DNA of 64,000 bases from an uncultured Acidobacteriota bacterium (GCA_963745965.1 CAVUZC010000006.1:148895-212894); one strand, 5' to 3'. Positions 1 through 15,966 are shown, counted from the first letter of the stretch. The notes: generated by a model not told the origin, from the sequence alone. Numbers and translations are program-made.

Positions 1-1147
1 ACGATCTCATCTATCGGATTCGTCCCTATGAGATCGTGCCCGGCAGCACCGACCTCGCCGTTGATGAGGCGGTGGATAAACTCGCCCATTTTCTCGAGAA
101 CCGCCGGCACTTTGAGATTCTCGAGCGGCTGCCCAGGCCGGCCGCGAACATCGTGGCTCGAAGCCGCAGATTGAAAGGATTTCTCAATGTCACGGGGAAA
201 GTGCTCGATCATCTTTACAGCCGCACCTTTGTGGCGGAGATGCAAAGCGCGCGAGAGCGGCTCGGCGAGTTGGAAGTCGATCACACACGCGTGAAGCCGG
301 TGGTGAAGATTGTGGGCGAGTTTTGGGCGCAGCTCACCGAGGGCGACGGCAACTTCAACATGTTTGCGTTCCTCGAGCGTGAGGGCGCGCAGGTGCATAT
401 CGAGTCGATCTCGGGATGGATCAGCTATCTGCTCTACCAGTCGCGCGCGGGCATGGAAGCAAGGAAGGGGCTCGAGTACCGATATAACGATGCGCACTGG
501 TGGGAACTGCGCAAGATCGCCGCTAACCGTTGGGGATACCGGCGCAAATGGCTCTTGTTGCGGGGCAGCGAGATGGCATGGGAACGCCTCTATGCGCGAA
601 CGGCGCGGCGCATGGGCGGAATTACGCCTCCCCTGGTTTCCCAGCGCGAACTGGCGCGTCTCGCGCATCCCTTCTACCATTCGCTCGCGCGCGGCGGCGA
701 AGGACACCTTGAGGTGGGCAAGAACGTCTACTACACCACGAACAAGCTCTGTCACATGGTGCTCGCGCTGAAGCCATTTGGCTGCATGCCCTCCTCGCAA
801 TCCGACGGCGTGCAATCGGCGGTAGTCAACCGGTTTCCGGAGATGACGTTTCTGCCCATTGAAACCGCGGGAGAAGGCGAGATCAACGCTTACAGCCGCG
901 TGCAGATGGCTCTGGGCGAAGCGCGCGCGAGGGCTCGCGACGGAGTTCGAAGCGGCGCTCGATTCCACGGGCCACTCGCTGGATGCGATCAGCGAGTATG
1001 CCGGGGCGCATCGGCAACTTGCGCAGCCCCTTTTATCCTTTTCCCCGCCAGCCGGGAATTGCCGGCGCGGCGGCGAACTTTGTGATGCATGTGGGCAGGC
1101 TGATGGACGGAAGAGAACAAATGGCGCGGCTTCCGGGTGAACGTTGA
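1..1147 (+). CDS. 2-hydroxyacyl-CoA dehydratase (HGD-D)-like reductase subunit, PlsR/Ger C-terminal-like; 5' truncated by window edge, frameshifted near 940 and 1040
   Basis: Frame open from nt 3 (DLIYRIRPYE...). Motifs KIVGEFWAQLTEGDGN and LALKPFGCMPS are typical of activase-associated HGD-D domains. The C-terminus continues in shifted frames (...EFEAALDSTG..., ...AANFVMHVGRLM...GER*) to a TGA at about 1147. Confidence 0.7.
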
Positions 1148-4100
1148 AAGAGGCGGTTCTGCAGGCTCAAACACAACGCGGCGGCGATGAGAACGGCGGA
1201 GCCGGAGGCCGCGTCCGCTTCCTGGTGGGATTCGATGTAGGTTCAACGACCGTAAAAGCGGTGGCCGTCAAAAGGCCCGAGTGAGCAAGATCGTGTGGCG
1301 CGACTATCGGCGACACGAGACGCGGCAGGCGGAGACGGTGCATGAGTTTCTCGTGCGCATGGAGCGCGAAGTCGGCATAGCCGCGGGAAACAGCCGCGTC
1401 TTCATCACCGGCACGGGAGGCGGCGCGCTCGCCGCTCCCATCGGCGCGCGTTTTGTACAGGAAGTGAACGCCGTCGCATTGGCGGTAGAAAAACTGCACC
1501 CGGAAGTGCACTCGGTCATCGAACTCGGCGGACAGGACGCGAAGATCCTGCTCTTCAAGCAGGATGGCCAGGGACGGCGCAAAAAGATCGCCTCGATGAA
1601 CGACAAATGCGCAGGCGGAACCGGCGCGGTCATCGACAAAATTGCAGCGAAGCTGGGCATTTCCGCCGGTTGCCTGCAAAGCCAGCGCTACCACGGCATC
1701 CCGATCCATTCCGTGGCCGGCAAATGCGGCGTCTTTGCCGAGACTGACATCAATAGCCTGCAAAAGCTCGGCGTCCCCGCAGGCGAACTCATGGCTTCGC
1801 TCTTCGACGCGATCGTTTTGCAGAATCTGACAGTGCTCGCGCGCGGCCATACGCTGGCTCCCGAGGTTCTGCTGCTCGGCGGACCCAATGTCTTCCTTCC
1901 TGGAATGCGCGAAGCCTGGCAGCACAAGATTCCGCTGCTCTGGCAAGAGCGCGGAGTGAAACTGCCGTCCGGCGCCGCAGCCGAAGACCTGATTCGCGTG
2001 CCGGAGGATGCGTTGTATTATGGCGCGCTCGGCGCCATCGAGTTTGGCAGAACCGAGGATGAGGCAAGCGGTCTTTATGCCGGGCGCAGCGCGTTGGAGT
2101 GCCTGATGCGCGAGCGCCGCGGCGACGGATCCGAGGTTCTCGGTAGTCGCGGATTGTGCGCCTCCGACGAGGAACTGCGCGAGTTCGAGCGCAGGTATCG
2201 GCGGCCCGCGTTTCAGTCGCCCGACTTTCGCGCAGGCGAACGGGTGGATGCCTTTCTGGGAATCGACGGCGGCTCGACTTCTACCAAGGCTGTACTGCTT
2301 TCTGCGCACGGAAAGCTCCTGGCCAAGGCTTACCAGTTGTCGAAAGGCAATCCTATTCAGGACACGATCGAAGTGCTCCAGCGGCTGCGCGGCCAGGTGG
2401 AGGAAGATGGCGCGCAACTTGCCATTCTGGGCGTGGGCACGACCGGGTACGCCAAGGATCTCCTCCGCCAGGTGTTCAAGGCCGATGTGGCAATCGTGGA
2501 AACCGTGGCGCACGCGGAATCCGCAAAGCACTTCTTCGCCGATCCGCAGGTCATCGTCGACGTGGGCGGACAGGACATCAAGATCATTCTGCTGCGCGAC
2601 GGCGCAGTGAGGGATTTCAGGCTCAATACGCAGTGCTCGGCCGGGAACGGCTACTTTCTGCAATCGACGGCAGAGTGTCTGGGGATTCCACTGGAGAACT
2701 ATGCCGAAGCCGCATTCAGTGCGAGGGCGATGCCGACGTTCGGTTATGGATGCGCGGTCTTTCTGCAATCCGATATCGTGAACTTTCAGCGCCAGGGATG
2801 GCGCGCCCACGAGATCCTCGCGGGACTGGCGACGGTGCTTCCACGCAACGTCTTTCTGCACGTGGCTAAGGTGCCAAACCTGCCCGCGCTGGGCACGCGG
2901 TTCATCCTGCAGGGGGGAACGCAAAACAATCTTGCCGCAGTCAAGGCGGAGGTGGATTTTCTGCGGGCCTCCTTCCGTCATTCTGGCATAGAGCCCGAAA
3001 TCTCGATTCATCCTCACTGCGGGGAATCCGGAGCGATCGGCGCGGCCCTCGAGGCGATCCGGACCAGGCGCGCGGGAATAGCGACCAGCTTCATCGGCAT
3101 GGACGCGGTGGCAGACGATCCGCTACAAGACCGAGTGCGACGAGCAAACGCGATGCTGCTACTGCACGAATGCATGTCTGCGCACGTTTCTCAGCGTAGA
3201 AGGACGGAATGCAGCCGTCTCCAGGCGCTTCGCGGCGCATTGTGCTGGCGAATTGCGAGAAAGGGGCGGCGCAGGACGTCGATGAGTTGCGCGGACATTC
3301 GAGCAAGATTGGAAACCGTCAAGGCCGCGAACCCTAATCTGGTCGCAGTCGCGGCGCGCGAAGTGTGGCGCTCGCGGCGGCCGGAGCTTGTGGTCGATTC
3401 CGTTCCACGGCGCGCATGGAACCGCAAGGACAGTCAGAAGCTGGCGTTGCGCAGAAAACGTGGTGAGCTGCGCATTGGCATTCCACGCGTGCTCAGCATG
3501 TATGCGTACGCCCCGTTGTTCAGCGCCTATCTCGAAAGCCTGGGCGTAGCAGCGGAGAACATCGTGTATTCGAGCGTGACCTCCGGAGAGATGTACCGTT
3601 CCGGCTCCAGCCGAGGTTCGATCGATCCTTGCTACCCCTCAAAGATCGCCATCGCCCATGTGCACGATCTGCTGTTTAAGCAGCATCCGCGCGCGCCGTT
3701 GGACGTAATTCTCTTCCCGATGTTCGACGTTTTGGCTACGCGGCTCGCGCATACTCGCGCCAACAACGGCTGTCCAACGGCATCGATCACGCCGGAAACC
3801 GTCGAAGCCGCCTACACGAAAGAGACCGATCTGTTTGGCGAGCGCGGTATCCGCTACATTCACCCTCTGGTGAATCTCACGAACCGCCGGCTCTTTGCCC
3901 GCCAGCTTTATGAGGCGCTCGAACCGGTTCTGGGATTGAGCGAGGACGAAAATGCGCGGGCCGTCGAAGCCGGCTTCAGGGAATTAGAGCGATTCGAAGA
4001 GGACCTGCGCCGCCGCGGCCGCGAGGTGCTGGACCGGGTGGAGCAGGAAGGGCGGATTGCCGTTGTCATGCTGGGCAGGCCGTATCATCACGATCCCGGC

Positions 4101-4577
4101 ATTCACCAGGGCATTCCGGAAGAAATTCAGAAGCTCGGTTATCCCGTCCTTTCGCAGAGCACGCTGCCCGTGGACAGCGATCTTCTGGAGCGGCTGTTCG
4201 GCGAGGAGATTCGCGAAGGCGTCATCTCATCCGCTCTCGAAATCTCCGACGTGTGGAAGACCGCGTTTTCCGCCAACTCCAACCAGAAGTTATGGGCGGC
4301 GAAGTTCGTGGCGCGCCATCCTAATCTTGTTGCGGTGGAGTTCTCCAGCTTCAAATGCGGTCACGACGCCCCGATCTACAGCGTAGTCGAGCAGATCATG
4401 CAGTGCTCCGGCACACCGTACTTCGCTTTCAAGGATATGGATGAAAACCGCCCCGCGAACTCGATCAAACTGCGCATCGAGACCATGGATTACTTCCTCA
4501 AGCGCTACCGGAAGGAGCGATTCGGGACCGGAGCTGAGCCGCTGGAACAAGCTGAGGTCGATGCGGCCGTCTGCTAA
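1144..4577 (+). CDS. CoA-substrate-specific enzyme activase: two BadF/BadG/BcrA/BcrD ATPase domains plus a DUF2229-type reductase region (PlsA/Ger-like); frameshifts near 1280 and 3110-3290
   Basis: GFDVGSTTVKAV (frame 1, about 1225) and GIDGGSTSTKAV ASKHA motifs; ELGGQDAK...MNDKCAGGTG and DVGGQDIK...NTQCSAGNG; RCCYCTNACLRTF in a shifted frame; GIPRVLSMY, CYPSKIA, GRPYHHDPG, FKCGHD. The TTG start overlaps the upstream stop. Confidence 0.85.
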
Positions 4578-4595
4578 GGCAACGCACGAACGCCC

Positions 4596-6380
4596 TCAGG
4601 TTAACTCTGTTGCGCGAGCGCGATTCGCCAGAACCTGCGCGATCCTCTCGCGCGCATATTGAAATCCGGTCAAGCCTGCGCAGGCTTCAGCGCGAAGGGC
4701 GGTTAATTCCCTTCGCAGGCTTGTTTCCGCCGGCGTGCCACGCGAGCCGCCGCTGATCACGCTGATACTGGTTTGCACTGCACGGGACACCGCGCGTGCC
4801 GATGCCAGATGGACGAGATCCTCGACCACGCCGGCGTTTGCATCCGGCGTGGACACTTCGAGTTCCGCGGAATCGAGCAGCAAAGAACGCGCGGCAAGCA
4901 AGCCGCAGAGCGAATCCGCCATTGCAAAGCCCGCTGCCTGACGCAAGCCGTGAAAGGCTCCTTCCGGGCCGGAACTGGTTTCGCTGCGCAAAACGCCAAG
5001 TGTGCGCGACCAGAACCTTAATCCTGTGGCGAGGATATTCGCAGCGGCCGTGTTGTGTTTGCGGTTTTCGAGATCTTCGATCCAGGCGGAAGCGTTTGCA
5101 GCAAACGTATCCGTCGTCATCGCGGCGGAGATCAGGCGCCGTTGCGAGGCGTCCGGGCCCATGTAGACGGCTTCCACCTGCGCATCGGCGATGTGCCTGT
5201 GGAGTTCGGCGGCGCTGGCGCCTGCAGCCGCGGCAACCCGAGAGAGCGCTGGAATGATGCGCGTGCTTGCGAAGAGCTTGGCGGCTGGGGAGAACAGATT
5301 GGAGTGCGCAGCAGCCGCGCGGTCGCAGGCGCCCCGGAAGTCCAGTTCGTCGCAAGAGCGCGCCGCTGAAAAACCCAGCGAGGCCGCGGCCTCTGCGGCC
5401 GCCCAAAGGTCCGCCATGTCAAGCCAGAACGCCGGGCTGTCGCATGGGGGTGCGGGGAAGAAATCGGCGGTTACTGCCAGGGCTTTGGCTGCGGTCATCA
5501 GCGCAAGGAGCGCCCGCGCCCGGCGCAACGCAGGCTCGAGCAGGTGCCGATGATCGAAGTTGGGCACGAGTACGCCATGCTCTTTCGTGTAGCCGCCCAC
5601 GATCCGCGCCGCGGGCACGCGCAAGCGAAAGCCGGGATGAGTAGCCGACGCGATGCGATGACCGATCTTTCTTGCCGGCGCTCCGCGATCGAACTCCCCT
5701 GCGTCGTGCGGCTCCAGAACGACGAGAGCGCTGCCGCTCGCTCCGTCGATTCCCTGTACGGCGGCTACCGCGAAATCCGCAAACTCCATGTGACTGGTGA
5801 ACCGCCCGCGCTTTTCGACCTCGATCCAGAGACCGTTCGCATCGCCGCTGGGACGATACGTTCCCATCAGCAGAAGCGCTTCCGCTCCGGCGCCGGGAAT
5901 CGGCTCGGTGAGACAGAGCGCGCCGTGCAGCAGGCTATTCTCCGAAGCATAGCGTTCCTTCTGTTCAACCGTGCCGAAATCTGCGATCGGCATCTGCGCC
6001 AGAAATCGCGACAGAAACAACGTCGCCAGGCCTCCATCCCGCGCGGCCAATTCGAGCAGAACCAGCCCGAGCGGTACGGCCGCCGGCTGCCGCGCGGAAG
6101 CCATCGCAGAAAGCAAGTGTGTATTGTCCAACGCTGCGAGCAGTTCCGCCTTTTCAGCGTTCCAACCGCAGGCGTTGCGAGTGCGTGCGGATTCAAGCTG
6201 CTCCTGCATTGCAGCCGCAAGTTGCCGAGCGCCGTCTTGCGCGGCGCAGAGGGCAGCTTCGTCCGCCAGCCGCCAGAGCCGCCGGTGGGTTGCCCGCAGC
6301 CAGTTGACAGACTCTGCCGGCCTAGGGCAGACGGACGGATTGCGGGCTATCTGGGACACAGTATTCCGCCATGTAGGCAC
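4596..6380 (-). CDS. Acyl-CoA dehydrogenase family protein (divergent)
   Basis: GALCLTEPIPGAG, EKRGRFTSHMEFADFAV, KIGHRIASAT, AKLFAST, DAQVEAVYMGPD resemble ACAD motifs. Start may be the GTG near 6360. Confidence 0.75.
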   Translation of the reverse strand: MPTWRNTVSQIARNPSVCPRPAESVNWLRATHRRLWRLADEAALCAAQDGARQLAAAMQEQLESARTRNACGWNAEKAELLAALDNTHLLSAMASARQPAAVPLGLVLLELAARDGGLATLFLSRFLAQMPIADFGTVEQKERYASENSLLHGALCLTEPIPGAGAEALLLMGTYRPSGDANGLWIEVEKRGRFTSHMEFADFAVAAVQGIDGASGSALVVLEPHDAGEFDRGAPARKIGHRIASATHPGFRLRVPAARIVGGYTKEHGVLVPNFDHRHLLEPALRRARALLALMTAAKALAVTADFFPAPPCDSPAFWLDMADLWAAAEAAASLGFSAARSCDELDFRGACDRAAAAHSNLFSPAAKLFASTRIIPALSRVAAAAGASAAELHRHIADAQVEAVYMGPDASQRRLISAAMTTDTFAANASAWIEDLENRKHNTAAANILATGLRFWSRTLGVLRSETSSGPEGAFHGLRQAAGFAMADSLCGLLAARSLLLDSAELEVSTPDANAGVVEDLVHLASARAVSRAVQTSISVISGGSRGTPAETSLRRELTALRAEACAGLTGFQYARERIAQVLANRARATELT

Positions 6381-7758
6381 GAGGGTTCATCAGTTGTTGC
6401 GAGCGCGCAAGGATGCGCGCAAGTTGGCCGACGTGCCGTAGATCCACCTGCGGCAGCCACTGCCACCACTTCTTGCGCCCGGCCGCATTCAGCACGGTGC
6501 GGCGCCACGTTTCGCAGTAAAGCTCGAAGAAACGTTCGACGGGAAGACGGGGCTTCCAGAGCAGATGATGCAGATCGTATTGGTTCCAGTCGAAGACTTT
6601 GATCTTTTCCCGGGTCGATGCGAAGAACTCCGTGCCAGGCAGGGGAGTCAGAATCGTGAATCCCAGCCGGAACAGCTGATGCGTCTCCACAAAATCCCAG
6701 AGAGTGTGAAAATCCTCTTCGGTAAAATCCGGATCGACGATAAAGTTGCCGGTGACGCCGAAGCCGCAGTCTCTCGCCACGCGCACGGCCTCCAGAGTCT
6801 TGGAAATATCGCTTCCTTTGTGCAGGGAATTGAGCCCTTGGCGCGTGGGCGACTCGAATCCGAAAAAGATGTCGAAGTTTTTTGCCAGCGGACGCCATAG
6901 CCGCAGCAGGTCTGCATTTCTGCTCACCAGGTCGGCGCGGGACTGCACCAGAATCCAGTTCTTGCGGGCCGGGGATGCGAGCAATTCGCGGGCGAGTTCC
7001 TCGCTGCGCGCCGAATCCGCCCAAAACAGGTCGTCGATGATAAAAAGATTGCGGCCGATGGCCGTGAAATCCTGGCGCACGTGCTGCGCCGAATGGTAGC
7101 GGCAGTTTCCCTCGTAGAACTGCCAAACGGAACAAAACTTGCAGCGGTGGCGGCAGCCGCGCGTCGTCTCCAGCGTCCACAGAGGCATGTAATTCAGACA
7201 GACATAGTGCTTGCGATAACCGCGGACGGCGGCGCGATCCGGCGGCAGGACGCGCTCCATCTCCAGCCATGGTTGCGCGCCGGCGGTGGCAACAAAACGT
7301 CCGTCGCCGGCGGGCAGAAGCAGGGATGGAATCTCGTCGAGAGGCCGGCCAGCGGCCAGAGCGCGGCACAGTGCCGGCATAATGCTCTCACCTTCACCGG
7401 CGCAGATGGCATCGATATTCTTCGCTCCCTCCAGTGCCTGCGGATAGGATGCGATGGAGTGTCCGCCGACGGCCACGAAAACCGAAGCATCGGCGGCCTT
7501 GATCTCCGCGGCCTGGGCAAGCGTTCCATGCACGTCGAGAATGTGCAGGCAGGAAATGCCCACGAGCTGCGGCCGGAAAGAGCGGATGAAATGCGCCATG
7601 GGCCGCCGCTCGAAGCCCATATCGACAATGCGCGCCTCGTGGCCTTCGGCGGCAAGCGCTGAAGCAATGTACTCAAGTCCGAGAGGCTCGGCGCGAAAGA
7701 AAGGCGCGAGACCGAAATGGGCAGTCGCGTTGCGCGGCTTGACGAGCAGAACCCTCAA
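6322..7758 (-). CDS. Cobalamin-binding radical SAM protein, HpnR-like class B C-methyltransferase family
   Basis: N-terminal B12-binding-like domain (EPLGLEYIA, VAVGGH); TTRGCRHRCKFCSVWQFY CxxxCxxC; IIDD, FFGFES, GNFIVDPDF, LTPLPGTE, YDLHH resemble hopanoid C-3 methylase HpnR-family motifs. Confidence 0.85.
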   Translation of the reverse strand: MRVLLVKPRNATAHFGLAPFFRAEPLGLEYIASALAAEGHEARIVDMGFERRPMAHFIRSFRPQLVGISCLHILDVHGTLAQAAEIKAADASVFVAVGGHSIASYPQALEGAKNIDAICAGEGESIMPALCRALAAGRPLDEIPSLLLPAGDGRFVATAGAQPWLEMERVLPPDRAAVRGYRKHYVCLNYMPLWTLETTRGCRHRCKFCSVWQFYEGNCRYHSAQHVRQDFTAIGRNLFIIDDLFWADSARSEELARELLASPARKNWILVQSRADLVSRNADLLRLWRPLAKNFDIFFGFESPTRQGLNSLHKGSDISKTLEAVRVARDCGFGVTGNFIVDPDFTEEDFHTLWDFVETHQLFRLGFTILTPLPGTEFFASTREKIKVFDWNQYDLHHLLWKPRLPVERFFELYCETWRRTVLNAAGRKKWWQWLPQVDLRHVGQLARILARSQQLMNPRAYMAEYCVPDSPQSVRLP

Positions 7759-8033
7759 CGGGGACCACCTTCTCCGCTCAGCCGGGAGTGGCTGACGACG
7801 ATGTGCGTAATTGCTTTCTAAATCTTAGGCCGAGTTTTGCGGCCGGTAAAGGGCTTGCGTTTTCGGCGTTTTCCCGCGCGGTTCTTGTTGAACGGATTGT
7901 GACGCACGTCCTTCGCCAGCGCAGCCGGAATGCTGTACATTCGTCTTGTCGCCTCCCAAGCCTCCGTGGATCTGCGAACCACGCGATCGGCGTTTGCTTG
8001 CGTGGTGTGTGCTTGTACAGGAAAGAACGAACG

Positions 8034-8815
8034 ATGCTGCGGCCGTATCTCTTTATCGGTCTGTTTGTAGCGACCAACTGCACCCTTGCGTTGCTCTATC
8101 CGTTCTCTTTGGCCCGATTTCTTGCCTTCGCGGCCCTCTACGGTCTGGGAACGGGAGTCATGCTCTTCCTGCTCTTTTATCCCACCAACGATTGGCTGGT
8201 GACGAACCGCTCGCATGTCGAAGGCGACAAAGAGATGGCGCTGACCTTCGACGATGGGCCCGACCCGGTGGACACGCCGCGGCTGCTGGATTTACTGCGA
8301 GCAAAAGGGCATCAAGGCGACATTTTTCGTCGTTGGCCGCCGCGCCGACGCAGCATCCCGAGATCGTGCGCCGCACCTGGGAAGAAGGGCATCTGATCGG
8401 CAATCACACGTGGTCGCATCAACCGCTTTTTTGTTTTTTGCCGCCATGGCGGCTGCGTCTGCGAGATCGAGCGCGGCACGGAGAGCATCCGGCGCGCTCT
8501 GTGGCATTAAACCACGCTACTTCCGTTCCCCGGTCGGATTGCGCCATCCCTTTCTCCGCCCCTATCTGGCCAGGCCGGGCTGACGTTTGTCTCCTGGCGA
8601 TTGCGCAGCCGCGATACCAGCATCCGCAATGCGGAGAAGACTGGCAGCATCGCATCGTGGAGAATGCGGAAGGCGGCGATATTATCCTTCTGCACGACCA
8701 CCGGCCCTGCGGAGCGAAGCCGATGCTGGAGGCGCTGCCCGGCGTGATCGACAATTGCGGGCGCGCGGATTTCGAATTCGTTCTTGCCGGCTCACGCGAA
8801 GAAGCGGAATACTGA
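8034..8815 (+). CDS. Membrane-anchored polysaccharide deacetylase (NodB/CE4), several frameshifts
   Basis: Two N-terminal hydrophobic segments, then LTFDDGP, ATFFVVG, GNHTWSH, RYFRSPVG and IILLHD spread over three frames. Confidence 0.85.
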
Positions 8816-8825
8816 AAAGGACTGC

Positions 8826-9502
8826 ATGAAAACCTGCGCATTGATTCCGGCATACAACGAGGCCAGCCACATCGGCCAGGTCGTGAGCGGCGCAAGAGCG
8901 CACGTGGATTCCGTGGTGGTCATCGACGATGGTTCCACGGACGAAACGGCCGAACTGGCCAGAAGGGCCGGCGCGGTTTGCTTGCGCAACGCTGCAAACC
9001 GCGGCAAGGGTTCAGTGCTGCGCACGGGCATGAAACATGCTATCTCCGAAGGATTTACCCACGCCGTGACTCTGGATGGCGACGGCCAGCATCTTCCCGG
9101 CAGATATTTCCGCGCTGCTGCGCGTCGCCCGGGAAACAGAAGCCGACCTGGTGATTGGCGCGCGCAACTTCGAACGTTCGCGATGCCAAGCGGCGCGCTA
9201 TTACTCGAACACGGTGGGCAGCCGCTGGGCGTCGGCGCATGGTGGGCAGGAAAATCGCCGACAGCCAAAGCGGATTCCGAGTGTACAAACTGGAGAGAGT
9301 TTCGCCAGATCGTTTTGCGCAGCACGCGTTATGAATTCGAAATGGAAGCGCTGATCAAGATGGCGCGAGCGGGGCGGTCATTGTCCATGCCCCCATCCAA
9401 ATGATTTACCAGGGCAATCAGCCGCGATCGAAGATGAAGCCGATACGCGATACCGTGCGCATCTGCTTCTGTTCCCTGGCATTTCGGTTTTTGGGAGCTT
9501 GA
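8826..9502 (+). CDS. Glycosyltransferase family 2 (DPM-synthase-like), frameshifted
   Basis: IPAYNEA, VVVIDDGSTD, NRGKG, TLDGDGQH (DxD), RYEFEMEAL. Stop at 9502 is followed by the next ATG at 9504. Confidence 0.85.
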
Positions 9503-9503
9503 G

Positions 9504-10136
9504 ATGAAGCCTCATCTCAAATGGTTCGCTCGCGCTGCATGGCTTCTGCTGTCACCGGCGCTTTGCGCCCAGCAGAACGATCTTCTGGCGCGCATCTGGG
9601 ATGGTGTACAGCAGGCCCAAGCGCATACAACTACGGCCTGCGGAACCGTGGTGGAGACGCGCACGTCGCCGCTGATGGTAAAGCCTATCGTGCTGCACGG
9701 CAAGTTCTGCGCCGAAGGCGCTGTGCGTTTCTGGCTCGAGTATCTTCCGCCGCATGCAATGACAGTGCGCTTCAACACGGATGATCTGAATGCGACTGGA
9801 AGCGACGGAGAAACTGAGATCGTCGACATAGGCAGCGGCGTGCGCCGCGCCCAGGCTGCGTTTAGCCGCGAAGGATCGCTGGCGGGCCTCGAGAAGGACT
9901 TCACCATCGCAGTTCACGAAGACGATCGCGAGTACGAGTTGAAGTTCCTTCCCCGTGCCGATGTTTTCCGGAGGCGGCTGAATCTTCTCGTCATCAAGCT
10001 GAGCAAGCGCACGTTTCTCCCCCGGTCCATAGAAGTCGATGGAAAGAGCGGGGTCAGCAGCGTCTTTGCCATCGACATTACGGCGACCAACGAGAAGCTG
10101 CCCGCGGGAATCTTCGAGGTGAAAAAGCCCAAATGA
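9504..10136 (+). CDS. LolA-like periplasmic lipid/lipoprotein carrier
   Basis: Signal peptide, about 210 aa beta-rich pattern (G.F.....VRFWLEY..P; LKFLP; IEVDGKSGVSSVF), and location next to FabZ and MMPL genes. Confidence 0.65.
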   Translation: MKPHLKWFARAAWLLLSPALCAQQNDLLARIWDGVQQAQAHTTTACGTVVETRTSPLMVKPIVLHGKFCAEGAVRFWLEYLPPHAMTVRFNTDDLNATGSDGETEIVDIGSGVRRAQAAFSREGSLAGLEKDFTIAVHEDDREYELKFLPRADVFRRRLNLLVIKLSKRTFLPRSIEVDGKSGVSSVFAIDITATNEKLPAGIFEVKKPK

Positions 10137-10549
10137 TGGAACAAGCAGAGATCGAAAAGCTGATTCCGCACCGGCCGCCGTTTCTGTGGATCGATCGCGT
10201 GGTGGAACTGGAACCGGGCAGCCGTTGCGTAGCGATTCTCAACGTCAGCGCGGAGAACCCGGTCTTCGGCGGGCATTTCCCCGGCAGGCCGATCTTCCCC
10301 GGCGTTCTGATGATCGAGGCCGTGGCGCAGACCGCGGCCGTGATGCTGGGCGCGGAAGGCCCGGCGGCGAGCGCGTTGCTCGCGTCCGTCAACCGCTTCA
10401 AGTTTTTGCGGCCGGTCATTCCCGGTGAATGCCTGCGTATCGAGACAAAAAAGCTAACGCAGATGGCGGCGATGGCTTACATTGAGGGCACCATCGCAGT
10501 AAGCGGGGAAAGAGTGGCAAGCGGCGAACTATCGGTCGCCTGGGGCTGA
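10133..10549 (+). CDS. fabZ: 3-hydroxyacyl-ACP dehydratase (FabZ family)
   Basis: IPHRPPFLWIDRV and FGGHFPGRPIFPGVLMIEAVAQ hotdog-fold motifs; ATGA overlap with the upstream gene. Confidence 0.9.
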   Translation: MMEQAEIEKLIPHRPPFLWIDRVVELEPGSRCVAILNVSAENPVFGGHFPGRPIFPGVLMIEAVAQTAAVMLGAEGPAASALLASVNRFKFLRPVIPGECLRIETKKLTQMAAMAYIEGTIAVSGERVASGELSVAWG

Positions 10550-10605
10550 ACTGCGTCGATCTCCCTGGAAGCAGGAATCGTTATCGGATAGGAACGAGTC
10601 GGACA

Positions 10606-11721
10606 ATGATGAAATCCGGCAGGGCATACATCAAGAAACTGGGAGCGACCCTGTTGACGGAGGGCCTGGACCCGGGTCAGGCCGGCATGGCGGTCGGCTT
10701 GGGTATCTTCATCGGCATCGTACCCATCTACGGTTTGCAGTCTCTGGCTGCTATCGGCCTGGCGATCGTCTTTCGCCTCAACAAACCTTTGACGTTGGCC
10801 GCAACCTTCATCAACAATCCCATCCTTCAACCTTTTCTCGTCATCGCATCGGTCGAGTGCGGCAGCTTGCTGCGCACCGGCTCTCTCCACCCATGGCATC
10901 TGGCGGGCTTCACCACCGCTGCCTTGCGCAACGATCTGGTTTCGTGGGCGCTGGGCAGCGTGGTTCTGGGAGTGGTTGCGGGCGCTGCCGGGACCGTGAC
11001 CACGATGGTTACCGTCGCATGGCTGCGGCCATCGAACTCCGGGCTGCGACGGGGTCCCGGTTTGCGCGCGCGGGTCCGCTTTGTGAATGGCATTTACGCC
11101 GCCGCGCCGCGGTTCGATCGCGGATTCGTGCGCTGGAAGATGCGGCTGGACAAGATATTCTCCCTCCTTGCTGCGGAAGGAATGGGATCGGGTACTGCCG
11201 TGGACCTTGGCTGTGGCTATGGGATGGCCTTGTGCTTTGCCGCTTACGGCCAGGAGGGGCGGCAGCTTGCAGGCTGCGACCTCGACCGGCGGCGCATCGG
11301 CGTGGCGCAAAAGGCGCTGGCCGGCGTTCGACGCCAAGGTTGAGGTGTGCGATGTGCGGCAATACCCATTGCCTGGTGCCGGCTTGATTCTGATTCTCGA
11401 CGTACTGCAGTACCTGACCGCCGAGGAGCAGTTGGCCCTGTTGGCCCGCTGTTGCGTGGCTTTGGAACCGGGAGGAAAGTTCGTCTTTCGCGTGCATGAC
11501 CGGGAGCACGGCGTGCGTTCGGCCATCACCATCGCTTTCGACAAGCTGATCTTCAAGATCGGCAGCGCGTCCACTCGGCCTTTGGTGCTTTCGCCGGAGC
11601 ATACCGTGCGGCGCTCGAAGCGGCAGGGATGCAGGTGCGCATGAAGCGCTTCTGCAATCTTCTGCCTCTGGCGCACATTCTTTTTGTTGCCGAGAAGCCC
11701 CGGCCGGAGAGCGCCTTATGA
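10606..11721 (+). CDS. DUF2062 membrane domain fused to a class I SAM-dependent methyltransferase; frameshifted
   Basis: AVGLGIFIGIVPIYGLQ...FINNPI (DUF2062-like), then AVDLGCGYG, GCDLD, ILILDVLQYL and LEPGGKFV across frames; ends at the TGA overlapping the MMPL ATG. Confidence 0.75.
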
Positions 11722-14259
11722 TCGCCCGGCTCACGCGTCCCCTGGCGCAGCTAGTCATCCGTTGGCCCGGATGGATAGCGGCTGCGGCGCTTGTCCTGAC
11801 CGATCGTTCTTTACTCGCATATTCATGCTCTGCGCACCGGAACCGACCTGACCGGCATGTTCGGAAACAAGGATCCGCAATGGCAGGCGGTGAGCAAAAT
11901 CGGCAATGAGCTCGGCTACGGAAATCAGCTCTACGTGCTGGTGCTGGCGCCCGCCGGCGATGAAGATCGCAGCGACCAGATGGAGCAGGTTGCGGACCAG
12001 CTGACACAGGAGATGTCCGCAAGCGGACTCTTCAGGTCGGCGCGTTCGGGACTGTCGGAAGAGGAATTGCTCGGCATCGTCCGGCTGTTTTCCTGGAACT
12101 TTCCCGGCCTATGCGGACGCCGAAAACAGCCAGGCCATTCGCGACCGGCTCGATCCCAGGCAGATCCATGCCAACGTGCGCGCCGCTGCCACCGAATTAG
12201 TGACGCCTTTCTCGACTCTGGGCACAAACTACTTTGTTGCCGATCCTCTGGGGCTCACGGCGGCGGCGGCGCGAAACAAGCAAGGCTTGAGTGAGTTTGG
12301 CAACTTCGATTTCAACTGGGGCTCGGGAAACCGCTTCTTCAGCAAGGATCACAAGGCGTTGCTGATTATCGCCCAGCCGCGCCAACCTGCCGTCGATTAC
12401 CAGTTTGCTCACCAGGTGATGGACTGGACACGGCAGCACATCGCGTACGCCACATCCGGCTCGGTCGTCAGGGATTCAGGCGTGCATGCCGTCCCAGCCG
12501 GGGCCTATGTCTATTCCGAGGAAGACCATCTGTTCATCGAGAAGAACATCCGCCGCGTCTCGCTGGTAGCGATCGTCGGCAGCCTGCTGCTTTGCCTGGC
12601 GGTCTATCCCAATGTCCAGATCGTTGTTCTTGTCGCTTCTGCCCACGGGCCTGGGAATCCTTTGGACGACAGGAATTGCCAGCTACTATCCCGGCGAAGT
12701 GAATCTGATCAGCCTGTCGTTCATCGCCATTCTCGCCGGGCTTGGTGACGACCAGGTAGTGCATTTCTTCAACCGCTCGCCGCAGGAATGGGAGAAGGGC
12801 GGCAGCTTCAACGACGCCATGCTGCGCACCTTTGAAACCACGGGGACCAGCATCGTGCTCTGCATTCTGACTGCGGCTACTTCGACGGCCGCGCTGGCCT
12901 GTTCCGGTTTCAAGGCGCTGTCGGAGTTTGGCTTCATTCTCACGGTGGGCATGTTCATGACGGGATTGCACACCCTGCTGACGGTGCCCGCCCTGATGCA
13001 GTTGTGGGGACGATACATCAAGCCGCTCGCTCCCAAGGCCATCACCTTCCGTTTTCTGCCTTCCCTGGCGCGGGTCTCGGTGGATTTTGTCGGCCGCCAC
13101 GCCGCGCATGGTCGCCATCGCTGCCGGGGGCCTGTTTCTCGCGTCGTTGTGTCTGCTGCCTTCCATACGCTGGGGAGGTCATTTCGCCGTGACGAGCGGC
13201 ACGGACTCGCCCGGGTTGGCGGCGCAGAATCTGCTTTCGTCAAAGTACGGCATCGAAGGCAGCCCGGATGTGCTGCTGATGGCGGGCACCGAGGAGGAGG
13301 TTCTGCGCCGCGCCGAGAATCTGACCGCCGCACTAGGGGAATACCAGAGAAACGGCGTGATCAAATCGGTGTTTTCGCCATCGCAACTTTTTCCTTCGGT
13401 GGAGATGCAAGCGCAGCGCGCCGACTCCCTTAAGGGAGTCGATCTGGGCGCCACGGCGCGCGCACTCAAAGAGTCTTTAGACGAGAACGGCTTCCGTCCC
13501 GGCCCGTATGCATCCTACTTCGCGCGCCTTCGGGAGTTGAGCCAGAACGCGCAGCCGCTCACGCTCGAGAGCGCGAAGTCCTATCTGCCTGCCGACCTGA
13601 TGGAAAACAGCATCCGCCGGACGCAGGACGGCAATTACGTCGCCGCCATCGCCTTCTATGCCTCCGATCCCAACACTCCGCAGGTTATTCCCGATTCCGT
13701 GCTGAAGCAGTGGCGCATGCGATACGGTTCATTTGTCGATTTCTCGTTCAACAAAATCGACAGGGACCTCCAGAGCCGCGTCTCTCATGACAGCCGCCGC
13801 GCTCTCCTGTGGACGGCAGCGGCGATCTTCCTGATCGTGTACTTCACCTTTCGGCGTATGTCCACGGCTTTGCTGGTCCTCATGCCAATCGGCTTCGCCA
13901 TCGTGGTCACCTTTGGCATTTTGCAAATTGCCGGGCATCGTTTCAGCATGATGGCAATCACCGCGCTCCCGCTGATCGTGGGCATCGGCATCGACAATGG
14001 CATTCACCTGGTGCGCCGTTATCTTGAAAGCGATCGCGATCGCAACCGCATTCTCACGGTCGCCAAGGCTTCCGGCGCCGCGCTGATTCAGTCCAATTTG
14101 ACCACCATCGTGGGTTTTGGCGCTTTGATGACTGCCACCTTCAAGCCCCTGGCCGAGATGGGGTTGGTGACTTCGCTGGGCGTAGCTCTGACCCTGGCGG
14201 GAGGGTTCTGGTTGATTCCTGCCCTGCTGTACCTGAGGGAAACGCGCAGAGAATCTTAA
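11718..14259 (+). CDS. MMPL/RND family lipid exporter; several frameshifts
   Basis: Two repeated TM bundles with AGLGDDQVVHF and IVGIGIDNGIHLV, TGTSIVLCILT and SGAALIQSNLTTIVGFGAL, and F..L.EMG motifs, spread over ORFs 11857, 12176, 12612 and 13087. Confidence 0.85.
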
Positions 14260-14394: not shown

Positions 14395-15966
14395 ATGTCC
14401 AGATCTGCTACGGGGGATTTGAACATCGATTTGGTAGCTTCTCTGTGCCCTGAGTGCGGGGCGCCGAGTACCGCGACCATCTTCGATCGTGCAGGAAAGG
14501 TCTACCAAAGGTCTCAGTGCGCTTGCCACGAGCCAGTTGAAGACCTGATTTTTTCCGACACAGCCCTCTACCGCAAACTCGACGAGTGGAACCGGCTGAT
14601 CTTTCCCTCTTCGCAGGTTGCCGGCAACCCTCCAGGAAATACGTATTGCCCGCAGGACATGAAAAGCGGGAACGAGCCTTGCCTGGCGGTGATCGATATC
14701 ACAAATCGCTGCAACTTTCGCTGTCCTGTCTGCTTTGCCGAAGCCAAGGGAGAAGGCAGCCATTACGCGCTTGATCCTGAGACCGTAAGAAAGATGCTGC
14801 AGGCCCTGCTGGACCGCCCCGTACCCTGCCGCAGCGTGCAGTTTTCAGGCGGCGAGCCTACCGTGCATCCGGAGTTTCCCAGCATTCTGCGCATGGCGCG
14901 GGAGATGGGCTTCACGCACATCCAGGTGGCCACCAACGGAAGCAAGTTTGCCGATCCCGATTACGCAAAACTCTGCGAGGATGCGGGACTCCACACGCTC
15001 TATCTGCAGTTCGACGGAATGAGCGACGAAGTCTACGTGAAGATGCGCGGCCAGCGCCTGCTCGACAAGAAGATCGCCGCGGTGCGCAGCATCGAGCAGA
15101 CCAACATGCGGCTGGTATTAGTGCCCACCATTATCGGCGGCATCAATGTCGATCAACTTGGGCCCATCTTCCGCTTTGCCCTCGAGCACAGCCGCTTTGT
15201 CACCGGCATCAGCGTGCAACCGGCGGCGCATGTAGGCCGCGTCGGTGTCGACGAAAATGGGGCCGAGCCCTTCAATCTTGCCGCCATGGCGAGGGAGTTC
15301 GGCGAGCAGACCGGGCTGACGCGCTTTCCCGACGACTGGTTTCCGCTTAATTCAATTGCTTTGCTGAGCCGGGCCATCGAACGCGTGCGCAACGAGCGCG
15401 TTCACCCCCCGCTCAGCGATGCGCATTGCTCCATTGGAACCTTCTTTTACATCGACGACAACAACCGGCCCTTCTGCCTGAGTAGCTTCTTCGATCTGGG
15501 CCGCTTCCTGCGCGGCATGGCGCAGGTGCAGTCCATGGCCACGCAGGGTTTGATCGGAAGGCAAATATCCAGGATCAGGCAGTTCGGCAGGTTTGCCACT
15601 TGTCTCAATCAGCGCAAGGCTCCTCCCGGGCTCACCTTCCAGCGCCTGATACGCAGTCTCGATGCCTGGGAGGACAAGGCGGACGGTCGTTCCGAAGGCT
15701 GGGATCGGCGCGGATTCAACGGCATCTTCGTGGCCGGTATGCACTTCATGGACGCGCACAGCTATAACCTGCGCCGGCTGCACCGCTGCATCATCCAGTA
15801 TGTCTCCACGGATGGAGAACTGATCCCGTTCTGTAGTTATAACGCAGGCGCACGGCTACGCGAGCAGGAAGAGTTGATTCGCATCAAGAACCGTCAGGCT
15901 GCAGCCCCGGCGCACCTGCCCGCCGCTGCCATGCCCGCCGGGAGCGGCGCGGCGCTCGACGATTAA
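14395..15966 (+). CDS. Radical SAM protein of the tetraether lipid synthase (Tes/GDGT-MAS, MJ0619) family
   Basis: N-terminal SLCPEC...QCACH metal site; DITNRCNFRCPVCFA; VQFSGGEPTVHP; IQVATNG; LYLQFDG; C-terminal HCSIG...GMHFMD...RCIIQY...LIPFCSYN matches the family as I recall it. ORF intact. Confidence 0.8.
   Translation: MSRSATGDLNIDLVASLCPECGAPSTATIFDRAGKVYQRSQCACHEPVEDLIFSDTALYRKLDEWNRLIFPSSQVAGNPPGNTYCPQDMKSGNEPCLAVIDITNRCNFRCPVCFAEAKGEGSHYALDPETVRKMLQALLDRPVPCRSVQFSGGEPTVHPEFPSILRMAREMGFTHIQVATNGSKFADPDYAKLCEDAGLHTLYLQFDGMSDEVYVKMRGQRLLDKKIAAVRSIEQTNMRLVLVPTIIGGINVDQLGPIFRFALEHSRFVTGISVQPAAHVGRVGVDENGAEPFNLAAMAREFGEQTGLTRFPDDWFPLNSIALLSRAIERVRNERVHPPLSDAHCSIGTFFYIDDNNRPFCLSSFFDLGRFLRGMAQVQSMATQGLIGRQISRIRQFGRFATCLNQRKAPPGLTFQRLIRSLDAWEDKADGRSEGWDRRGFNGIFVAGMHFMDAHSYNLRRLHRCIIQYVSTDGELIPFCSYNAGARLREQEELIRIKNRQAAAPAHLPAAAMPAGSGAALDD

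Follow-up and report, generated by a model that had tools for sequence, protein, structure and literature searches.

The window analysed here, a 64,000-nucleotide stretch of DNA from an uncultured Acidobacteriota bacterium (GCA_963745965.1 CAVUZC010000006.1:148895-212894), opens with two plus-strand genes that fill positions 1-4577. On balance, and with moderate confidence, we read these genes as encoding two subunits of one ATP-driven iron-sulfur (Fe-S) reductase of the PlsA/PlsR-Ger kind, a pair that is intact in nature. PlsA/PlsR makes vinyl ethers and Ger makes alkyl ethers, in both cases from esters (PMC13159169, PMC9702350). Homology and the surrounding lipid genes suggest that the window pair, too, may carry out an ester-to-ether lipid reduction. 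It is the leading candidate for that step, an idea already in print, and the window adds little that is new on the enzyme: the pair is one more member of a branch that is already known and unassayed.

Organisation of the gene pair

The domain set of PlsA/PlsR and Ger, which an earlier note on this DNA had recognised, is present in full: two activases, a cysteine (Cys) linker, DUF2229 and a second reductase-like subunit. The features of the pair are as follows.

1..1147, plus strand: gene 1, the PlsR-like partner gene (second reductase module, "X"), 3′ part; placed by tblastn with the intact 584-aa orthologue (L003:6250-8004) and by read-through translation
1144..1147, plus strand: gene 1/gene 2 overlap TTGA, with the TTG start (1144-1146) lying over the TGA stop (1145-1147)
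1144..4577, plus strand: gene 2, the large, PlsA-like "BBD" gene, 1142 aa with five inserted letters removed; placed by Pfam and translation
1207..2045, plus strand: activase domain 1 (ASKHA), cluster Cys pair NDKC / GKCGVF; aligns to the DCCP-R activase 7yyl_E, with the Cys 100% conserved in 119 homologues
2256..3056, plus strand: activase domain 2 (ASKHA), cluster Cys pair NTQC / GYGCAVF; Pfam BcrAD_BadFG at residues 326-592 of window:1281-3110; aligns to HgdC 1hux
3154..3256, plus strand: linker CxxCxxxC (CCYCTNAC-LRTF) and distal Cys in ANCEKG; spread over three reading frames in the record, due to inserted letters
3471..4160, plus strand: DUF2229 (first reductase module), Pfam 3.9e-48
3630 (DPCYPSK), 3771 (NNGCPTA) and 4356 (FKCGHD), plus strand: invariant Cys of the DUF2229 half, FKCGHD lying just past the Pfam match

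Position 1 of the window is G000:C6:148895 in the source genome, and the 10 kb on its 5′ side were taken in as L002. The window holds the 3′ 1147 nt of gene 1, whose ATG lies 629 nt 5′ of the window (L002:9371, equal to G000:C6:148265). That the stop of this gene overlaps the TTG start of gene 2, as the earlier note had proposed, was confirmed in the sequence. The TTGA overlap is taken to be real because no canonical start other than the TTG at 1144 falls after the in-frame stop (1138-1140) and ahead of the first ASKHA strand, RVRFLVGFDVGST; the equivalent spot in the orthologue L003 reads GTGA. Since the 5′ neighbour is divergent from the pair and the 3′ neighbour, 18 nt off, is convergent with it, the two genes form a unit of their own.

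A search for a sigma-54 promoter 5′ of gene 1 gave no plus-strand match in the intergenic region and a total below chance, and a scan for sigma-70 promoters and terminators gave counts equal to chance. This DNA was not found in the RNA runs examined; only proteins of its relatives were found, in wetland, peat and permafrost metatranscriptomes. The host is a Terracidiphilus-like soil or peat acidobacterium, in keeping with the habitat that had been guessed; among named relatives, those nearest to it are Terracidiphilus metagenome bins of peat and soil origin.

The large subunit carries two activases and DUF2229

In gene 2, Pfam finds BcrAD_BadFG twice (1.6e-63) and DUF2229 (PF09989) once, NCBIfam matches an acyl-CoA dehydratase activase domain, and the sequence matches in the PDB are HgdC (1hux), HadI, MbdQ/P and the DCCP-R activase (7yyl_E). 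The two ASKHA domains, the Cys cluster RCCYCTNAC (3151-3177) and the motifs CYPSK (3630) and FKCGHD (4350-4367) that the earlier note had picked out are all there. In alignments to HgdC and DCCP-R, each ASKHA domain retains the two Cys that in HgdC bind a bridging [4Fe-4S] cluster. Twelve Cys are conserved in the gene 2 family (119 homologues), eleven of them in 100% of the proteins and one in 99%; four lie in the ATPase domains, one after the second ATPase, four in the CxxCxxxC...C linker and three in the DUF2229 half. All double-activase plus DUF2229 proteins examined, the fused 1414-1500-aa type among them, have the linker motif, which does not vary across 40 diverse proteins and is likely to form an extra Fe-S site. 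For an AlphaFold2 (AF2) model of the C-terminal half (pLDDT 91.4), the ten best PDB matches are DCCP, HadB/C, MbdO/N and BzdN/O, with E-values of 2e-5 to 3e-3 and TM-scores of 0.29-0.49. Gene 2 is the only DUF2229 gene in the genome. DUF2229 was also matched in the control genomes of T. maritima and L. lactis.

Matches of this kind could also belong to a classical 2-hydroxyacyl-CoA dehydratase (HAD) with its activator, or to a class I benzoyl-CoA reductase (BCR), with a role in amino-acid fermentation or in the anaerobic breakdown of aromatics: HgdC, HadI and MbdQ/P are matched by the ATPase domains and, at the level of fold, HadB/C, BzdNO and MbdON by the reductase modules. The known systems, however, have separate activators of ~260 aa, or four subunits, together with Pfam HGD-D, whereas here two ATPases are fused to DUF2229 and HGD-D (PF06050) is unmatched in gene 1 and in gene 2 of the lineage. 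Scores against the NCBIfam benzoyl-CoA reductase models fall far under the cut-offs (subunit A, 115 bits against 578; subunit D, 79 against 313; BzdQ, 87 against 380), and nearby there are no CoA-transferase, fermentation or aromatic-pathway genes, the neighbours being lipid and radical SAM genes. The earlier note had named clustering with the CoA-dehydratase activators of amino-acid fermentation among the findings that would speak against it, and no sign of an amino-acid-fermentation dehydratase context was seen around the pair. We give this alternative almost no credence and retain a reductase of the PlsA/PlsR-Ger kind.

Gene 1 encodes the second reductase module

Gene 1 is the second reductase module because natural fusions, profile alignment and fold all place it there. 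Searches of Pfam, NCBIfam and PDB sequences with the intact 584-aa orthologue gave no match, even when the thresholds were relaxed. When a profile built from 40 sequences of the gene 1 family was compared by hhalign with the C-terminal module (~430 aa) of the 1414-1500-aa fused proteins, 402 columns aligned at a probability of 100% and E 1e-48, with the Cys motifs in register. The invariant or near-invariant Cys of the family are C100, C139, C142 and C465, and its conserved Cys motifs are GQCNPTYF, GSCGPCRFG and KPFGCMPS. An AF2 model (pLDDT 86.4, pTM 0.87) has DCCP, MbdO/N and BzdNO as its eight best PDB matches, at modest scores (E 2e-3 to 0.1, TM-scores 0.25-0.45); for the two reductase modules alike, all of the best 8-10 PDB matches come from the HAD/BCR/DCCP superfamily. 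The label "HGD-D-like" previously attached to gene 1 is thus apt at the level of fold and profile, but Pfam HGD-D itself does not match. Fold and Cys pattern are also what suggests that the two reductase modules may be paralogues; the gene 1 family and the DUF2229 module gave no significant hhalign match (probability 5%), nor did BLASTP find any when gene 1 was compared with gene 2's C-terminal half.

A profile search of 1.84 billion representatives returned 2103 gene 1 relatives. Natural fusions occur in both orders, X-BBD (P0165, 1623 aa) and BBD-X (P0171, 1579 aa), and another search brought to light more BBD-X fusions, 1600-1730 aa long, some of them from Myxococcales. Because the profile aligns to the fused module, fusions exist in both orders and the adjacency of the genes is conserved, the two proteins of the window would be expected to work together.

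In other genomes, relatives of ~1270 aa (P0167, P0279-P0296) carry a PlsR-like module in one chain with two ferredoxin-type domains and an NADPH flavin oxidoreductase resembling GltD, an arrangement that hints that NAD(P)H can be the ultimate donor and that may give the enzyme family a built-in electron supply. Some genomes of the order (G060, G121, G258, G290 and G271) have a second, shorter (~510-aa) and far more distant PlsR-like relative, beside the main type or replacing it.

Gene order and spacing in related loci

The order of the two genes had been described as reversed, and so it is: the partner gene comes first in the window and in 78 of 80 related loci, which represent species-level genomes, while the remaining two loci end too soon to tell. 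By comparison, C. perfringens has the order plsA-plsR, where tagging the first ORF at its N terminus yielded a band of PlsA size (PMC12838417), and the fused proteins in question are BBD-X. The window pair therefore departs from the activase-DUF2229-first order of the PlsA/PlsR-Ger enzymes. This is an organisational and not a catalytic difference; both fusion orders occur within the same clade.

In all four loci found by protein identity the partner (584-595 aa) is followed by the large protein (1116-1185 aa), and in 65 of the 80 loci the large gene lies ≤400 nt downstream of the partner on the same strand. Translational coupling, which the overlap had suggested, is plausible in this lineage, where the stop and start overlap both here and in L003, but it is not a family feature. 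We found the 4-nt overlap only in the window pair, in its closest relative, L003, and, under a first-start rule, in 3 of 65 adjacent pairs; most other pairs are separated by gaps of 3-130 nt.

A radical SAM/SPASM-like gene of 435 aa stands between the two genes in 13/80 loci, from Korobacteraceae and other Acidobacteriaceae bins (L041:7778-9085; also L039, L043, L047, L057, L061, L063, L065, L068, L069, L073, L084 and L088). Its product and the Tes homologue encoded elsewhere in the window have only the radical SAM core in common.

Frameshifts in the deposited record are assembly errors

As suspected in the earlier note, the reading frames of the pair are broken in the deposited record. In a DNA alignment with an 85%-identical relative (L003), the window's copy of the pair carries nine single-base insertions.

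Inside the window, at about 941/942, 1016/1019, 1274/1281, 1287/1292, 3113/3116, 3224/3200 and 3296/3292: seven insertions, the first figure of each pair taken from the L003 alignment and the second from metagenome contigs
5′ of the window, at about -513 and -64: two insertions, from the L003 alignment only, outside the stretch compared with contigs

Logan contigs of soil metagenome runs X1, X2, X3 and X5 (four studies) were aligned on window positions 1-12500; X1 may be the source sample, and X2, X3 and X5 come from other studies. All seven within-window insertions are absent from contigs of the runs covering each, the one at 1292 being absent in 2 of 4 runs. A single 36,955-base X1 contig spans all of 1-12500, with 125 differing letters and 52 gaps. 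Differences from the contigs are clustered in patches (660-1712, 2780-3296, 7841-9300 and 10584-11471, the last reaching 12100 with the comparison to L003 taken in), and stretches that include 1704-2437, 3241-4098 and 4281-7471 show at most one difference from contigs of these runs. Further insertions relative to L003 lie in other genes at 8300-9300 and 11300-12100. The patchiness looks like incomplete polishing of a long-read metagenome bin.

Repair of the frames, which had been proposed as a check, succeeded for both genes: with the nine letters removed, gene 1 encodes 590 aa and gene 2 encodes 1142 aa, with no stop. Both read-through proteins are 86% identical to the intact L003 proteins; that of gene 2 shares 86% identity with P0003 (1141 aa), and none of the conserved Cys motifs is missing. 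Since the seven within-window insertions are missing from metagenome contigs and their removal opens both frames, we are highly confident that the breaks are consensus or assembly errors and not decay, and that both genes are intact in nature.

If the frameshifts were real, the pair would be decaying pseudogenes, and the record does carry nine frame-breaking insertions in 5.2 kb. All nine, however, are insertions, none of them in a long homopolymer, with no stop codons and no deletions; the seven within the window are absent from contigs of four independent runs that are otherwise identical over kilobase stretches; the differences are patchy and affect other genes at 7841-9300 and 10584-12100 as well; and the read-through proteins have lost none of their conserved Cys while remaining 86% identical to intact orthologues. 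Decay is accordingly very improbable, and the assembly-error explanation is adopted throughout. It would be a mistake to take the broken frames of this record for gene loss, and surveys of long-read metagenome bins can overlook or miscall the locus. The error patches, made up of substitutions and single-base insertions, disrupt other genes as well: those for the polysaccharide deacetylase, the glycosyltransferase, the methyltransferase/DUF2062 protein and the MMPL protein.

Family position and distribution

More than 100 Terriglobales proteins of about the same length match the gene 2 protein at 64-84% identity. Its identity is 44-60% to relatives, split or fused, from Myxococcota, Latescibacteria, Chrysiogenetes, Evansella and Agarilytica, and 25-33% to the fused type of 1414-1500 aa. 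A quick maximum-likelihood tree puts the Terriglobales proteins in one clade (support 100) inside a larger clade that mixes split and fused (1580-1730-aa) forms.

The partner gene was found in 105 of 301 high-quality genomes of the order, representing 34 of 60 genera and including 4 of the 33 other genomes of the host's own genus. Close homologues of Tes (≥40% identity) occur in 36 of 300 genomes, and the partner gene is present in 29 of these 36, as against 75 of the 264 others. A threshold of E 1e-60 splits a second, 32%-identical group of Tes paralogues, hence only the separate ≥40% group was counted. The denominators take in the unpublished genome G223, which has neither a close Tes homologue nor the partner gene and on which none of the claims depends.

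Comparison with characterised and proposed systems

PlsAR/Ger homologues have already been put forward for ether bonds in Acidobacteria, namely in E. aggregans and H. foetida (PMC13159169) and in S. usitatus (PMC10087280). In S. usitatus Ellin6076 the genes Acid_0921/Acid_0922 (589 + 1188 aa) were proposed for the ether step in the synthesis of brGDGTs (glycerol dialkyl glycerol tetraethers of the branched type), Acid_0922 being 30.2% identical (1.5e-126) to C. perfringens PlsA (1004 aa) and Acid_0921 20.9% identical (2.3e-14) to C. perfringens PlsR (420 aa) (Halamka et al. 2022, PMC10087280, Table S5). Like the window pair, these are two adjacent genes from the same phylum, split into a PlsR-like and a PlsA-like protein of comparable size (589/1188 aa, against 590/1142 aa here); they come from a different order, Bryobacterales, and are also uncharacterised. 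The likeness is drawn from published sizes and identities; these fit the window family, and the two pairs may be orthologous.

The anaerobic plasmalogen synthase PlsA/PlsR of C. perfringens (CPE1195, 1004 aa; CPE1194, 420 aa) shows the same two-protein split and belongs to the BCR/HAD superfamily (Jackson et al. 2021, as cited in PMC12838417 and PMC9702350). Compared with it, the window pair has the reversed gene order, a partner that is ~170 aa longer and without a Pfam match, and a host that is not a strict anaerobe; the identities, ~30% and 21%, are judged via the S. usitatus counterpart. The glycerol ester reductase Ger (T. maritima Tmari_0479; D. alkenivorans SHJ90043; PMC13159169) has the same modules in one chain, BBD and then HGD-D/DUF2229-like pieces, and makes saturated sn-1 alkyl ethers (PMC13159169), the kind of ether known from subdivision 1 Acidobacteria. 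Unlike the window pair, it is a single fused polypeptide with its second module at the C terminus, and it is active only anaerobically (PMC13159169).

The E. aggregans "Ger homologue" and the Acidobacteriota matches classed as BBD-only "ger architecture 2" contain PF01869 twice and PF09989, as does the window (PMC13159169; 10.64898/2026.06.23.733905). A 2026 preprint reads the BBD-only acidobacterial matches as proteins without the second reduction domain (10.64898/2026.06.23.733905). Contrary to that reading, the second module is present, in the window and in 78 of 80 loci, as a gene just upstream that Pfam does not see. The "BBD-only" homologues are thus not missing their second module, because this Pfam-less gene supplies it, and architecture calls based on Pfam are therefore misleading here.

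The systems HadBC/HgdAB with HadI/HgdC, Bzd/Mbd and the double-cubane reductase DCCP:DCCP-R have in common with the window pair the ATP-driven injection of electrons, the ASKHA activase with its bridging cluster, and the catalytic fold; the window pair differs from them in subunit layout, in having no CoA-pathway context and in having no Pfam HGD-D match. DCCP is among the best fold matches of both reductase modules. It holds six Cys for an [8Fe-9S] cluster in one catalytic subunit and has a separate DCCP-R, whereas, in a comparison of Cys counts, the window has four invariant or near-invariant Cys in gene 1 and three in the DUF2229 module.

Proposed mechanism and choice of substrate

A mechanism for the pair is suggested by analogy with the HgdC/HAD, BCR and DCCP systems and by the PlsAR/Ger papers. 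The two HgdC-like ATPase domains of the 1142-aa subunit would jointly hold one bridging [4Fe-4S] cluster, which a reduced donor of the ferredoxin type would load. ATP hydrolysis would then lower the potential of the cluster and drive a low-potential electron into the DUF2229/partner heterodimer, in which the 590-aa subunit would take the position of PlsR as a second module with its own Cys set; the CxxCxxxC...C site may be an Fe-S relay toward the DUF2229/partner clusters. At the active site the ester carbonyl of a glycerolipid would be reduced to a radical, which would take up a proton and lose water to give a vinyl ether, and this might be reduced further to an alkyl ether. The substrate would most likely be the sn-1 ester of iso-C15 or iso-diabolic-acid lipids.

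Several observations weigh against an ether-forming role. The clade has no assayed member and is only 25-33% identical to the 1414-1500-aa fused type, from which a long, 100%-supported branch separates the larger clade. The tree is unrooted, several of its rows are long-branched, and the characterised proteins CPE1194/1195, EF1327, Tmari_0479 and SHJ90043 are not among them. Gene 1 matches neither HGD-D nor DUF2229 in Pfam and is ~170 aa longer than PlsR. The association with Tes is to be read with the facts that the cut was chosen after the scores had been seen and that related genomes are not independent; linkage of the pair to Tes, over 10-14 kb, occurs only in this genus (G000, G166, G196), and in the other Terriglobales loci L007 and L008 the pair has no lipid neighbours. 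Known members of the family work only without oxygen, and most Terriglobales are aerobes. Relatives are found in aerobes too, Evansella and Agarilytica for instance, and ether lipids are not known from these.

Some of these points would fit equally a machine of the same ATP-driven Fe-S radical type acting on a different substrate, such as an acyl-CoA or acyl-ACP (acyl carrier protein) thioester, a 2-hydroxyacyl intermediate of the neighbouring fatty-acid-type pathway, or a carbonyl or unsaturated compound of an unrelated kind. The clade stands apart from the fused type and is unassayed, and several relatives keep the pair without lipid neighbours; in addition, the superfamily includes dehydratases, aromatic-ring reductases and the small-molecule reductase DCCP, the partner fusions to a GltD-like NADPH oxidoreductase with ferredoxin domains say nothing about lipids, and the window pair itself sits in an aryl-polyene-like fatty acid cluster. 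What speaks for a lipid ester instead is that the four-module layout, including the linker Cys motif, is common to the fused enzymes, where the characterised PlsA and Ger belong by architecture; that the partner gene co-occurs with close Tes homologues; and that, across loci, the pair is not coupled to any CoA-transferase or CoA-ligase. We regard a different substrate as a possibility to be taken seriously, though clearly the weaker one, and continue to favour a PlsA/PlsR-Ger type reductase of lipid esters.

Genomic neighbourhood and a possible tetraether-lipid cluster

The neighbours of the pair that have been placed most closely are listed below.

L002:8024-9070 (930-1976 nt 5′ of the window), minus strand: unknown 349-aa gene, divergent from the pair
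4596-7758, minus strand: 594-aa protein with a weak acyl-CoA dehydrogenase C-terminal match, then a B12-binding radical SAM protein, both converging on the pair
14395-15963: Tes homologue, a radical SAM protein matching the NCBIfam model of tetraether lipid synthase (NF045702 E 2e-104, 350 bits against a cut-off of 450), 10 kb 3′ of the pair

On the 5′ side, on the other strand, the 349-aa gene is accompanied by an ACP gene (seen in the syntenic locus L003), a B12 radical SAM gene and a lipid A-type acyltransferase, followed by two ketoacyl synthases, a gene resembling ketoacyl synthase (KAS) III and an AMP-binding enzyme. The 349-aa gene has no Pfam family beyond a faint hint of PHP_C (E 0.01-0.02), and its place is unchanged in L003 and also in L007, a locus that is unrelated in other respects. 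On the 3′ side a B12 radical SAM gene also follows the pair in L003 and L009. Further 3′ in the window lie genes for a deacetylase, a glycosyltransferase, a FabA-like dehydratase, a methyltransferase and an MMPL protein, and the Tes homologue is followed by a LolA-like protein and a FabG-type reductase.

The wider cluster is more interesting than the pair itself. brGDGTs are widely used as proxies for temperature and pH, and their biosynthetic genes in Acidobacteria are not proven. We tentatively suggest, as an idea well short of probable, that the acidobacterial clade may be the enzyme that forms the ether bonds of iso-diabolic-acid ether lipids and brGDGTs, and that in this genus it may lie in one contiguous tetraether-lipid cluster, made up of the pair, the Tes homologue, B12 radical SAM methylase candidates, a dedicated set of fatty-acid synthase genes and an export line. 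If this is true, the whole brGDGT pathway could be tested from a single locus, and the distance of 10-14 kb between the pair and the Tes homologue in this genus makes for a locus compact enough for expression tests.

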